Source: Escherichia coli O157:H7 (GTDB lineage: Bacteria > Pseudomonadota > Gammaproteobacteria > Enterobacterales > Enterobacteriaceae). From it: DNA of 64,000 nt. The position numbers were made by a program. The DNA lies in the NCBI RefSeq assembly GCF_013167455.1, contig NZ_CP038328.1. One strand, given 5' to 3'. Shown here in pieces: positions 43,201-46,200 of the stretch; positions within the stretch are counted from its first letter, which is position 1, and each line of letters starts with the position of its first letter.

Positions 43201-46200
43201 GTCCTGCAATAACAGAAAGGTCATGGTCGTCTATTTCTTCGTGGTTGCGTTCAATCATGCGGCTGATTACTTCGACCTGTTGCGCTTGCAGTGAGGCTTC
43301 TGCCAGTGTTATTTGCTGCATTACTGCACCCCCTTAATTTCATGATATTCAGAACAACAAAGGATTCAGTCATTGACGCATATTGCATCATCACCCGATG
43401 CAGCAATCAGCCAGCTACCTGCCTTACCTGTAAGCTGCTTAATCAGGGCGAGCAATGACTCAATCTCACCCTCAGTCATTCCACCTGTGTTACCCATCAT
43501 CAGAGAACAAATAAGTTCTGCCTGCATTGCGCTTTTTGCTGCTTCATCAACAGTCATATCGGAAAAATCACACATGAATTACTCCTCATCCTGAATACAT
43601 GTAACTGCGTGGATAATTACGCCGGATAAACCGGCTTTAGCTGATTTGTTAATTACTGTGCTGATTGCAGCCTGGACGTTTTCGGCCTTCACGTTCTGTG
43701 TGATGCCGATGGTATGGCCGCGCTTGTTAACAGCACGGGAAAAGACGCGGAAGGTTTTAAGCATGAGTCACCTCCTGACGGATACGGGCGACAAAAATCA
43801 GATGTGCGTGCGGCAGCCGGGCGCGTGCTTCGCGCTCAGTGGCAGCGGTAACGGTGAATATTGCAATGCTGTCTGTCAGGCACTGCATAAAGCGCCAGAC
43901 AAAGTAAGGGCGTGCGGATACAGCCATGTGAAAGGCTCCTCTGACTTTGGGATTATACCCACCGCCCAAGAGGCCAATCTTGCTGGCGGTGGACTGTACG
44001 GAATTGGCCTTACTGGTGTTAGAGGAAACCAGCCTTCCCGAAGGAAGTTCCATACAGCCCACCATTGTTGAGGTGTGCGTGTGCGCCGATACAAAAAAAA
44101 AGACGCTGGCGCGTCGTGTATCGCCTCTAACTCCAGCGGGAGGCCAATCCCGATCCCCGTTTTATAAGGGATAGCCTCAGTATATGCCGCTTTTTTGCTT
44201 AAGTGGTCGGATGTGTTGCGAGAGAAGTTTGTGCGAAAAATACCTGCGTTTTCTTTGAAAGCACATAATAACATCACGTTATTTATGTTTATGCAGTGTG
44301 TCGCAAAGCGACCTGAATCATCACGCAAATTACAACCATAAAAAATACCTGCGCTGTGATATGAGGTACTACAGCGCACCGCTTTACGGGTACAGACAAT
44401 GACAAATGAAGAATTACAGGAAATCGCATTATCCATACTTGAGCGACAGCGCGAAAAAGCACAACGGCAAAGGAGGTTGTTACTTAATCCACTGCCACTC
44501 ACCAGGCCAACACGATTTGCCCTTGAAGATTTTGTCGAGAAATACCCACGGCGGTTAAAAGCCACTAAAAACCGACCGCCTGGCTGATAGCCTTGTCCAC
44601 CAGCTACACTCATGGCATAGTTGGTGATGCGCTTGATTTCCTTTATCTCCATTGGCGACCCTTCCGTGGTCGCCTTTGTTTTGCCTGCCATTCCTGCATC
44701 ATGCGGATATTCGCGCCATACAGGGCCACCAGCGCGATAATTTAATAAAACCTCCTTCTGATAATGCTTAACGTGTTTCATGCGCTCAGCGGCGAAATGG
44801 CTCACGATATGGTGCATGTAATCAGAATGGTTGAGGCTCAGTTGTGCGAACGTATCCGCCGTGTCGATGTACAGGGCGGCAGCGTTGCGGATGTCAGGCA
44901 TGTTCATGCTCTCCCATGCGACGGGCCAGCCAGCGCTGTGAAAGGCGGATTAATTCGGCTTTTCGCTGCTGGTAAGTCATACCCAACTCAATCAGCGTGA
45001 TATTGCTCTGGTCAAGGTAGGAAAGGTGTTCAAGCTGCATAACGCTCATGCTGTCACGCGGTTTTCCTTTGATGCCGTTCGCCTGCGCCCATTGTTTCGC
45101 CGTCATGCCGCCCAGCACGATACGCGCCAGCATATTTGATTCTGTGGTGTAGTGGTGTTGATGAGTCTCTTTTCCCAACTCTGCGCGGTACAACTCCAGC
45201 GCAGCGCACATAGGCTTAAAAAAACTGGCAACGGTGACACGCGCTTTCAGTTCACGGCGCAAAGCTGCGGCACGTTCCGGCGCTGCCTTGTGTAGCTCTT
45301 CTTCACATTTGATGAAGTACTGGCGAATTGCGCGGCCCTGTTCAGTGCGTTCGACCATCGCCAGTTCTTTAGCCATGTTCGTGGAGATCAAATAGTCTTC
45401 ACTGCGGCGATCACCGCCGCGCTTTGTTGTCCAGCCAGAATCAAACTGTTCAATATTTACACTTTGGCTCCCCCGTTTCGGGGAATCAAAGTACAAATTT
45501 TCTACAACCTCAAAATCCACACCTTTTTTAAATCCGTACTCCTCAATACGCCCTTTGATCCAGGTAGTGAAATCACGGCCTACACCGAGCGCTTTATGCA
45601 GTGCGCGTGCGCTGACAATGCCCGTTTCATATCCGCCAATAATGCCAGGTGATACCGGAATAATTGCGGCGAAATACTGTTGGCTCAGTTCTTCGGACTG
45701 AACGAAGCCCTGCCCCTGTACGGGCATATTCGGACGTTTCATTGAAAACTCCTGCTGTCGAATCAGGTTTGGTGCTGACGGGCGCGGAACTGTACGCCCG
45801 TCATGCTGATCACTGCTTGGTGTTGTTGCGGCGCTCGTTCAGCCAGTGGTTGATCTCCACCGCATTAAATACGGTGTTTTTCTCCCCCAGCTTCGTGGGC
45901 TTCGGTAATTTGCCGATACGCACCCAGCGGTCGATAGTTGACACGCTGGTATCAAGCAACTTAGCCAGGTTGCAGCGGCGGATGTAGCCCGTGGTAGGGA
46001 TAGCTTCTTGATGGTTAGCTGTCATGATTCCCTCTTGGGTTAAAAGTTGATGTTTTCTCTATTCTATTGGTTGTTTGTACAGCATTCCATCAAATCTGGA
46101 ATCTATCAAAATATTCACAGATTCTATTGAAATAATATATTTCCAGTAAAAGATTGTGTGAGCGGGAAGAGGTGCTAAGACTTTGAAAGTTTTTGCTTTA

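Follow-up and report, generated by a model that had tools for sequence, protein, structure and literature searches.

The closest described relatives of the locus analysed here are the antisense-RNA immunity regions of P4 and P1, in both of which tandem promoters precede the immunity RNA, as the P4 map supports. Among the RNA families concerned, isrK has been equated with the P4 seqA region and C4 with P4 CI (PMC3632133, PMC4825925). In Gifsy-1, the short form of IsrK acts in trans and activates orf45-anrP translation (PMC4825925). Within a P4-like island of Escherichia coli O157:H7, positions 44070-44400 of the window, i.e., of the whole 64-kb stretch of DNA that was analysed, make up the region that controls an RNA immunity cassette of the P4 type. 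The locus is of a known kind and mostly ordinary: a PerC-containing island carries a heteroimmune version of the P4/P1 antisense-RNA immunity switch, which has been studied in depth.

The P4-like island and its RNA immunity cassette

The island lies at yicC. A tyrosine integrase (by PGAP annotation), an AlpA/Vis-type regulator with a helix-turn-helix (HTH) and a P4-family primase stand in the same order as in P4. The regulator gene matches Phrog_66 (excisionase/regulator). The primase matches Phrog_864 at 3.8e-188, and its score against TIGR01613, 93.9 bits, is under the cut-off of 108.7. In the RefSeq copy, no sid, delta or psu gene is annotated between yicC and dinD, and the interval instead carries PerC-family, ProQ/FinO, SSB and antiterminator Q genes. 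Since sid, delta and psu are missing, the element is named a P4-like island and not a strict P4 satellite.

The first-pass annotation had described the stretch as promoter-rich, AT-rich and non-coding, located between an antirepressor-like gene and the small ORFs preceding alpha. The location is correct, with an AntA-type antirepressor gene on one side and the icd-like gene and small ORFs before the P4-family primase on the other. The AT-richness is mild only (GC content of 45.9% vs 49.8% across the window). The non-coding character holds for 44186-44398, where no conserved ORF is present, but not for 44070-44185, which carries minus-strand RNA genes. Abundant promoters were not recovered: a consensus scan found no sigma-70-like site in 43500-45200, against 2.0 expected. 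Two candidate ORFs were also rejected. For a 48-aa small ORF (44195-44341) spanning copy A of the 13-mer described below, the related element SpLE1 carries an in-frame stop in the sole candidate frame. A 343-aa ORF on the minus strand (43876-44907) is unannotated by PGAP, is antisense to the 62-aa gene ORF62 and has its frame broken by indels in relatives.

The expectation that a P4-type RNA immunity region would occupy this position was borne out. Adjacent matches to the Rfam families C4 and isrK, both exceeding their gathering scores, are located on the minus strand (Table 1), and the cassette sits downstream of the 13-mers along the direction of transcription. The minimum-energy fold of the C4-type RNA (-40 kcal/mol) reproduces the family architecture. 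At the level of sequence, a CCA follows its closing stem (…CCACCGCCAGC), a feature shared with RNase P substrates. PGAP annotates an 'ash family protein' pseudogene over this gene, which is how gene callers misread this RNA.

Boxes complementary to the C4-type RNA over 9-13 nt are present on both of its sides. The two b boxes are formed by an exact 10-mer, GAGGCCAATC, whose copies are 170 bp apart, one on either side of the C4 RNA. The duplex between the leader and C4 has a calculated energy of -62.6 kcal/mol, compared with -39.1 +/- 5.2 kcal/mol with shuffled targets. Furthermore, the three elements covary: the window has GAUUGGCC / GGCCAAU / GAUUGGCC, whereas strain 2014C-3338 has UUACCACC / GUGGUAA / UUACCACC. 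In the relative L172, b1, the C4 tract and the downstream b box change together. That the RNA and both of its targets vary in step from one island to another clearly supports the P4 model on comparative grounds.

A leftward promoter equivalent to P4 PLE would start the isrK/seqA-type leader at about 44172. Its -10 hexamer, TATACT, lies 7 nt upstream of isrK model position 1; the spacing is the same in P4, where TATAGT is followed by 6 nt and then by the model start at 8692. Read-through beyond the leader terminator would produce the C4/CI-type RNA, and the two RNAs are probably co-transcribed. The C4-type RNA would be processed by RNase P at its 5' end, and its loop and single-stranded tract would pair with the bipartite boxes upstream (44152-44124) and downstream (43979-43937). 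As P4 and P1 suggest by analogy, the operon of icd, small ORFs and primase would consequently be shut off by premature termination or a translational block.

Table 1. Positions in the window of the immunity region, the 13-mers and neighbouring genes
Feature	Position	Strand	Description
P4-family primase gene	41127-42953	-	
icd-like gene	43757-43927	-	NF033153, 51.4 bits, cut-off 25; first gene of the operon toward the P4-family primase
Downstream target box a2	43937-43945	-	GUCAGAGGA; spans the icd-like Shine-Dalgarno sequence (ATG 43927)
Downstream target box b2	43970-43979	-	Exact copy of b1; covariation
C4/CI-type antisense RNA gene	43982-44069	-	RF01695, 73.8 bits, gathering score 45, model positions 1-87
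Leader intrinsic terminator	Stem 44115-44102, U9 44101-44093	-	Terminator scan; ends the isrK-type leader
isrK/seqA-type leader RNA	44096-44172	-	RF01394, 52.1 bits, gathering score 50, full length
Upstream target box a1	44124-44136	-	RNA CUGGAGUUAGAGG; complements C4 loop CCUCUAACACCAG (44025-44013), 13 nt, 92%
Upstream target box b1	44140-44149	-	RNA GAUUGGCCUC; complements C4 single-stranded AGGCCAAU (44010-43999), 12 nt, 92%
Candidate leftward promoter (P4 PLE equivalent), -10 TATACT	44179-44184	-	Poor -35 ACCACT (44207-44202); position-weight score 4.38
Conserved 64-bp block	44179-44242	.	AGTATA...TTAAGTGGTCGGATRTG...GTYTRTGYGAAAAAYA; alignment, all eight representative relatives
13-mer copy A	44236-44248	+	AAAAATACCTGCG; right edge of the conserved block; -64 to -76 from the putative leader start
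13-mer copy B	44341-44353	+	-169/-181 from the putative leader start; final GCG forms the first 3 bp of the ORF62 leader hairpin
ORF62 leader RNA hairpin	44351-44377	+	GCGCUGU, 13-nt loop with GAGGUACU, ACAGCGC
ORF62, 62-aa gene, unannotated	44399-44587	+	Third-position bias (e.g., 3/3/17, 8/8/23); divergent from the immunity operon
Terminator-like hairpin	44654-44674	+	Terminator scan; after ORF62, between convergent ORF62 and antA
AntA-type antirepressor gene	44894-45742	-	
AlpA/Vis-like HTH gene	45810-46025		
Tyrosine integrase gene	47059-48372		

The 13-mer pair and its conservation

The exact 13-mer AAAAATACCTGCG reported by the first-pass annotation is indeed present twice on the plus strand, 105 bp apart from start to start, and no further copy with up to one mismatch occurs in the window. 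The two copies had been read as target repeats of the seqA/seqB type that flank an immunity RNA encoded between them. The P4 architecture invoked for this purpose does exist, 60-270 bp away. However, both 13-mers are located upstream of the putative leader start and are therefore absent from the leader transcript, and the RNA is not between them. In the 92 nt that separate the copies there is no terminator, no Rfam match and no fold that stands out from chance (z = -1.45 and -0.28). A search of both strands for a complementary partner gave 32 matches at up to three mismatches vs 23.5 expected, none of them notable, and the 13-mer has no complement anywhere in the element. Instead, the true RNA and its covarying targets lie elsewhere, and the repeats that actually flank it are those of GAGGCCAATC. 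The 13-mer pair, lying beyond the leader transcript and having no complement in the element, is outside the antisense circuit, and its reading as RNA target repeats is extremely improbable.

In dinucleotide-preserving shuffles of the 331-bp stretch, a direct repeat of at least 13 nt arose in 0.1% of cases. For the 64-kb window, the expected number of such close repeats is about 0.4, and at least one is found in 35% of shuffled windows; statistics alone thus leave chance possible. No type-1 variant found has lost either copy, not even one that is about 10% diverged (L155; A 13/13, B 12/13), in which they fall in the two longest invariant runs. Yet the type-1 set is almost clonal, with 100 records showing identities of at least 99%, and this persistence is accordingly weak evidence. 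Copy A is conserved at 12-13/13 in the type-2 relatives SpLE1 and E2348/69, which are about 76% identical overall, and is retained across two types that together number about 700 E. coli genomes; the part common to other element types is AAAAAYA only. Copy B is missing from about 600 type-2 genomes, which read AAAACATTTTTGC and retain copy A and ORF62. Its ACCTGCGCYGTGATATGAGG is also found upstream of ORF67 in two relatives (L013 and L011).

The identity of the two copies might be a coincidence or a neutral relic without function. Sequences that were already alike could have become identical through a small number of substitutions or a short templated patch, or an old 92-bp insertion could have left a duplication. 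Relatives already match copy A at about 9/13 in the copy-B position (L007, AGAACCACTTGCG), and type 2 manages without copy B. On the other hand, the local probability is low, the diverged type-1 variant keeps both copies, and the 92-bp insert (44249-44340) lacks terminal inverted repeats. Moreover, no empty site was seen among the matches listed, which sample 800 matching E. coli records and in which full-length matches align in two pieces 105 bp apart. Such an origin is considered unlikely. An insertion with a 13-bp target-site duplication was rejected because the ends of the insert lack inverted repeats and a synthetic empty site had no single-piece match among the matches listed from E. coli complete genomes.

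Wider sampling covered genome, metagenome and viral sequences. The metagenome scan supplied 35 useful loci. In genome contigs, the 14-mer TTAAGTGGTCGGAT gave chance matches only, the one in E. albertii being the kdp promoter, and the 25-mer pattern had no match in viral contigs. An informal inspection by eye for CRP, Fis, IHF and P2/P4 late-promoter (TGT-N12-ACA) motifs gave no convincing match. A hairpin beside copy A, considered as a conserved element or a minus-strand terminator, was rejected, being weak and not maintained: SpLE1 has it in stable form, but the minimum-energy fold of the window lacks it and E2348/69 has it broken. Any function of the 13-mer is putative, and the repeat would matter only as an operator or a promoter core.

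The conserved block, ORF62 and the possible role of the 13-mers

About 800 E. coli genomes carry the 64-bp block at whose right edge copy A lies, and on one side of the block RNA-type and protein-type immunity modules replace each other. The block extends from TATACT at one end to AAAAAYA at the other, and the sequences either side of it vary by element type. The block is probably a back-to-back divergent promoter cassette, in which copy A would provide the -10 hexamer (AAAAAT), the discriminator and the start (+1) of a candidate rightward promoter. In type-3 relatives, the distance from the block to ORF62 is only about 85 nt and is taken up by two hairpins, which leaves the block as the sole room for a promoter. 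The rightward candidate, GTGTTG-17-AAAAAT, has a position-weight score of 4.18, below the 99.9th percentile of the background (6.27). The minus-strand reading of this 13-mer, TATTTT, is equally weak, with scores of 3.98 and 3.78. Both AAAAAT (+) and TATTTT (-) retain A2 and T6, and their -35 hexamers are poor (scores of 3.7-4.2). The best position-weight candidate, a minus-strand site of the TATTTAT type at 44270-44265, scores 6.3, is the only one to reach 6.27 and lies off the 13-mers.

Read on the minus strand, CGCAGG-TATTTT-T could also supply two extra -10 elements for longer isrK-C4 precursors, in the manner of P51a/P51b of P1 immI or PLL/PLE of P4. TATTTT agrees with TATAAT at T1, A2, T3 and T6, its two scores are near that of the main promoter (4.38), which is supported by homology, and tandem promoters are in use before the immunity RNA of the relatives P1 and P4. 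However, the associated -35 elements are poor (ATGTGC and TAGTAC), and the consensus scan passed no site. The identity would span -18 to -6 only, with its end unexplained, and the sequence upstream of TATTTT / TGTTTT is unrelated in type-3 relatives and L011. Such transcripts would also be antisense to the ORF62 leader. Tandem leftward promoters at the 13-mers are very unlikely.

ORF62 is under purifying selection and has an invariant C-terminal KYPRRLK..K.RPPG. Its family, which comprises only 21 cluster representatives, has no Pfam-derived, PHROG or NCBIfam match, and none of the related loci sought with ORF62 across genome contigs was confirmed. The leader hairpin is conserved and covaries: 92% of cells are paired vs 21-64% with the partners slid, three pairs show compensatory changes, and its G-U pairs are possible on the plus strand only. 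The hairpin itself has z = -2.2. A putative upstream ORF of 13 codons has its start codon at 44361. In relatives, an upstream ORF59 looks ribbon-helix-helix-like by eye; Pfam gave no support, and PHROG 949 (function unassigned) was the sole match.

A single DNA-binding regulator, such as the ORF62 product, the AlpA/Vis-like protein or a helper-phage protein, might bind both 13-mers, with a DNA loop coordinating the leftward promoter of the immunity region with the rightward one of ORF62. Such an operator pair would agree with the exact identity of the copies, with their spacing (105 bp = 10 x 10.5, i.e., 10 helical turns) and with their joint retention in all type-1 variants, including the diverged one. 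In addition, relatives without C4/isrK hold repeated palindromes at this place (GTGTTGAACAC three times in L009 and GGTGTGGCCCAC twice in L010), indicating that protein operators are used at the locus within the family, and three TACCAG-like motifs occur in the equivalent leader of L011 and L013. However, the 13-mer has no dyad symmetry and no more copies near the int, att or AlpA promoters, and many type-2 genomes keep copy A and ORF62 without copy B. ORF62 does not match any DNA-binding family, and the RNA hairpin already accounts for the last 3 nt of copy B. An operator pair is quite unlikely. One form of this reading, in which the 13-mers serve an uncharacterised small regulator, best represented by the ORF62 protein with its basic tail, that forms a DNA loop from the immunity promoter to its own gene, is decidedly unlikely. 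If true, it would place a protein switch atop P4-type RNA immunity, in islands that swap RNA and protein immunity modules at one site.

The explanation that fits best overall, with a somewhat better than even chance of being correct, is that of a P4-type RNA immunity control region in which the 13-mers belong to a rightward unit expressing ORF62. In this unit, copy B would constitute the A-rich single-stranded foot and the first 3 bp of the leader hairpin, 22 nt before the ORF62 start codon. In relatives, small genes of this operon are repeatedly preceded by a box of the form 'A-rich + ACCTGCG + hairpin', and the exact identity of the two copies would most likely reflect shared ancestry of that box rather than a dedicated repeat-dependent mechanism. 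Two features are modestly useful beyond the window: the conserved candidate promoter block with exchangeable immunity modules, present in those 800 or so genomes, and, across the block, an unannotated gene under selection with a covarying leader hairpin.

Comparison with known immunity systems

In anatomy only, the 64-bp block can be compared with divergent cassettes, e.g., lambda PRM/PR, and with the tandem P51a/P51b of P1. It is likewise a compact block with two -10-like hexamers 51 bp apart, and the downstream modules are exchanged on each side. Lambda-type cassettes differ in that the island block has no operator symmetry, and no cognate repressor was found for it.

The leader resembles that of Gifsy-1 IsrK of Salmonella, which represents the same 77-nt leader family and has its own intrinsic terminator, read-through and a processed downstream RNA, STnc1160 (PMC4825925).

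The immI regions of P1 and P7 share a C4-family RNA that is processed from its target's own transcript, which would hold for the island by analogy. They also share a and b boxes doubled up- and downstream, with the downstream set over the icd ribosome-binding site and an icd-like gene directly next. A P1-like phage matches 43933-44169 at 83% identity. Yet the antirepressor gene of the island is upstream in a separate transcription unit and not downstream of icd, and the operon continues to a primase. No relationship extends to the promoter region, because the phage homology ends at the leader start.

The differences from P4 concern specificity and gene content. The boxes are GAUUGGCCUC / GUYAGAGG in the island and GUGAGAA / UUCACAGG in P4; a different immunity specificity is thus expected. 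The first regulated gene of the island is icd-like, as in P1, and the sid-delta-psu operon is absent. An AntA gene and a divergent 62-aa gene stand between the Vis-like gene and the promoter, whereas P4 vis abuts PLE, and the -35 element of the island is much weaker. Nevertheless, the two RNA families are common to both elements, and they keep the same order and strand with respect to an operon with a P4-family primase; in a scan of P4, isrK was found at 8692-8615 (60.8 bits), with C4 following in the same order. The spacing from the -10 hexamer to the leader start is also the same, a terminator hairpin closes the leader, bipartite complementary boxes are present on both sides of the RNA, and an integrase and an AlpA/Vis-like gene are located upstream.

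A repeated 13-mer in a P4-like island

The 13-mer AAAAATACCTGCG (repeat family D1) occurs at 44236–44248 (copy A) and 44341–44353 (copy B) on the plus strand, spaced 105 bp apart, and this repeat is real; no third copy was found in the window at ≤1 mismatch. Of 2000 dinucleotide-preserving shuffles, 0.1% gave a direct repeat of at least 13 nt within the 331-bp stretch. For the whole 64-kb window, ~0.4 close repeats of at least 13 nt are expected, and at least one occurred in 35% of shuffled windows; thus, statistics alone leave room for chance. Identity by chance, or as the relic of an old insertion, is an unlikely account, and no empty site appears among the E. 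coli matches listed. The first-pass annotation, which had correctly placed both copies, described the stretch as AT-rich, which holds only mildly (GC 45.9% vs 49.8% in the window), and as promoter-rich, which neither scan supports: consensus searching found no sigma-70-like sites against 2.0 expected, and the sole position-weight candidate reaching the 99.9th percentile of background (6.27) is borderline (6.3) and lies apart from the 13-mers, at 44270–44265 (−).

The window is 100% identical to E. coli O157:H7 chromosomes, and the region is an island located between yicC and dinD (RefSeq copy). Since the island contains no sid, delta or psu gene, it is P4-like, not P4 sensu stricto.

Features of the island around the 13-mer pair
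Feature	Coordinates	Strand	Remarks
Tyrosine integrase		−	First in the island's minus-strand order
216-aa ORF		−	After integrase
AlpA/Vis-like HTH protein	45810–46025	−	After 216-aa ORF
AntA antirepressor	44894–45742	−	After AlpA/Vis-like gene
ORF62 (62-aa protein)	44399–44587	+	"Hypothetical" per PGAP in some genomes
Leader hairpin	44351–44357 / 44371–44377		Just upstream of ORF62; loop contains conserved GAGGUACU
c4-a1b1	44185–44133		Rfam, sub-threshold
isrK (RF01394)	44172–44096	−	Rfam, 52.1 bits vs gathering score 50
C4 antisense RNA (RF01695)	44069–43982	−	Rfam, 73.8 bits vs gathering score 45
icd-like gene	43757–43927	−	Separated from AntA gene by the 13-mer/RNA region
Three small ORFs		−	Between icd-like gene and primase
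P4-family primase	41127–42953	−	After the three small ORFs
SSB, ProQ/FinO and PerC-family genes		−	After primase

Elsewhere in the island, three or four copies of a TTTTTGCGCACTTTTT-like motif, ~83–104 bp apart (37372–37590), and a short 12-bp tandem array (37526–37561) lie in the intergenic stretch separating the YeeE-like and PerC genes and look like iterons or operators. At the integrase/yicC edge, a weak, sub-threshold Trp_leader-like match (48445–48557, −; 25.6 bits vs gathering score 41) ends in a strong terminator hairpin. The window also carries a 141-bp tandem repeat (1675–2262; 4.2 copies, 99% identical).

The adjoining RNA immunity cassette

An RNA immunity cassette adjoins the 13-mers on the opposite (minus) strand. 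The first-pass annotation was right to expect a P4-type RNA immunity region at this position: Rfam identifies C4 and isrK here, arranged as in P4, whose seqA region and CI RNA are the counterparts of isrK and C4, respectively (PMC3632133; PMC4825925). A −10 hexamer, TATACT (44184–44179), accompanied by a poor −35, lies 7 nt ahead of isrK model position 1, and an intrinsic terminator (stem 44115–44102, then U9) closes the isrK-type leader. Expression, RNase P processing and termination are predicted steps. Judging from P4 and P1, the processed RNA would bind both the leader as it emerges and the region where icd starts, and this pairing would shut off the icd-primase operon.

Two annotations here look like artefacts: an "ash family protein" pseudogene of PGAP (43982–44065, −), which falls exactly on the C4 RNA gene, and a 343-aa ORF (43876–44907, −; 380 aa in the related locus L009), reported by some gene callers, which extends in antisense across ORF62, the two 13-mers and the RNA cassette. 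Some relatives carry tandem C4-family RNAs ~480 bp apart (L005, 1745–1832 and 2226–2313; L007, 1596–1683 and 2077–2164), each followed by an icd-like ORF.

The true RNA-flanking repeats are an exact 10-mer, GAGGCCAATC, at 44140–44149 and 43970–43979 (D6), which reads GAUUGGCCUC on the RNA and complements single-stranded AGGCCAAU of C4 (I4: 12 nt, 92%). Another box, CUGGAGUUAGAGG (44136–44124), is complementary to the C4 loop CCUCUAACACCAG (I2: 13 nt, 92%); downstream, its counterpart GUCAGAGGA (43945–43937) serves the icd-like gene as Shine-Dalgarno sequence (I12). The duplex of leader and C4 has an energy of −62.6 kcal/mol, compared with −39.1 ± 5.2 for shuffled targets. The strongest support for the predicted pairing comes from comparison with E. 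coli 2014C-3338 (L172, 1301–1553 vs window 43920–44172): the cassette there is otherwise near-identical, but leader, C4 and downstream target change together, from GAUUGGCC / GGCCAAU / GAUUGGCC in the window (cores UUGGCC / GGCCAA / UUGGCC) to UUACCACC / GUGGUAA / UUACCACC. This is the pattern expected of an immunity-specificity determinant and suggests one cassette in heteroimmune variants.

The 13-mers stand outside this circuit. They lie at −64/−76 and −169/−181 from the inferred leader start, 44172, hence upstream of it and outside the leader transcript. No complement of the 13-mer exists in the element, and searching at ≤3 mismatches gave nothing notable (32 matches vs 23.5 expected). The 92 nt between the copies show no Rfam match, terminator or significant fold, so that the initial idea of target repeats flanking a small RNA failed when tested and has a next to negligible probability.

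Proposed divergent promoters and the ORF62 leader

Homologues of 44180–44400 occur in 720 E. coli genomes, and island types were defined from these together with loci of assemblies and metagenomes. Both copies are present throughout type 1 (the window and its variants); in L155, a variant ~10% diverged, copy A is intact (13/13) and copy B differs at one position (12/13). Type 2 (SpLE1 of Sakai and EDL933, E2348/69; ~76% identical, ~600 genomes) retains copy A (AAAAATACCTGYG), has AAAACATTTTTGC at the copy-B position, and alters the hairpin stem in a compensatory way. The known sRNA Esr41 (RF02676, 108.6 bits; L002 4818–4891 in Sakai SpLE1, L004 4819–4892) lies ~2 kb from the type-2 ORF62/copy-A module in SpLE1. 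Type 3 and the L011/L013 types have AAAAAYA alone in common with copy A.

The sole block conserved in all eight aligned representatives is bounded by AGTATA at 44179 (minus strand: TATACT) and GAAAAAYA at 44242, with type-specific sequence on either side. On the left, Stx and P1-like phages are homologous over 43933–44169 only, i.e., the RNA cassette without its promoter. In type 3, the gap between block and ORF62 is only ~85 nt and consists of two hairpins; the ORF62 promoter must therefore lie inside the block. We infer that 44179–44242 is a back-to-back promoter cassette, in which copy A would give the rightward promoter its −10 (AAAAAT), discriminator and start. Tandem leftward promoters with TATTTT score no worse by position weights than this rightward reading, but strike us as very improbable.

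Copy B contributes its last three bases to the first three base pairs of the leader hairpin. Comparison of 11 relatives shows the hairpin to covary: pairing holds in 92% of cells, against 21–64% with partners slid; three pairs show compensatory changes, and several G-U pairs are possible on the plus strand alone. Together these indicate an RNA element on the plus strand, within the ORF62 leader. A possible upstream ORF of 13 codons (44361–44402, +), whose TGA overlaps the ORF62 ATG (ATGA), has an open frame in 9 of the 11 relatives, but its start codon is matched by an ATG or GTG in just 6; its peptide is no more conserved than the hairpin accounts for.

Differences between ORF62 and its relatives pile up at third codon positions (e.g., 3/3/17 and 8/8/23), indicating a real gene under purifying selection; it is unannotated or called hypothetical. 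Its basic C-terminus, KYPRRLK..K.RPPG, is invariant. ORF62 matches no PHROG or NCBIfam family, none of its homologues has a precomputed Pfam domain, and its cluster representatives number only 21 among 1.8 billion proteins.

In L013 and L011, the same rightward operon begins with ORF67, and the sequence ahead of that gene nearly matches the ACCTGCGCYGTGATATGAGG of copy B; thus, an "A-rich + ACCTGCG + hairpin" box recurs before these small genes, and the perfect 13/13 match in type 1 may simply reflect common ancestry of such boxes. Operators for some regulator, as a pair, would suit the spacing of ten helical turns and the obvious repeated palindromes that C4/isrK-less relatives show at the same site, yet this reading appears quite improbable for a 13-mer with neither symmetry nor a third copy, and type 2 dispenses with copy B. 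Most plausibly, the two 13-mers belong to the divergent promoter and the leader that serve a small conserved gene, where any function is putative.

The C4/isrK-less islands (L009 2150–2260 and equivalents in L010, L014 and L015) have a gene for a PHROG-949 protein of 59 aa ahead of their ORF62 homologue, with palindromes GTGTTGAACAC three times in L009 and GGTGTGGCCCAC twice in L010. There, a protein-operator module seems to take the place of the RNA immunity module.

Comparison with P4

In P4 (NC_001609), isrK (8692–8615) and C4 (8507–8420) lie in the same order as in the window, with vis on one side and the alpha operon's first ORF on the other. The P4 −10, TATAGT, stands at the same distance from the isrK model start as TATACT here. 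The bipartite box layout is also that of the window, but the box sequences differ. The immunity cassette is of a known, well-described kind; the window's version is new and probably heteroimmune.
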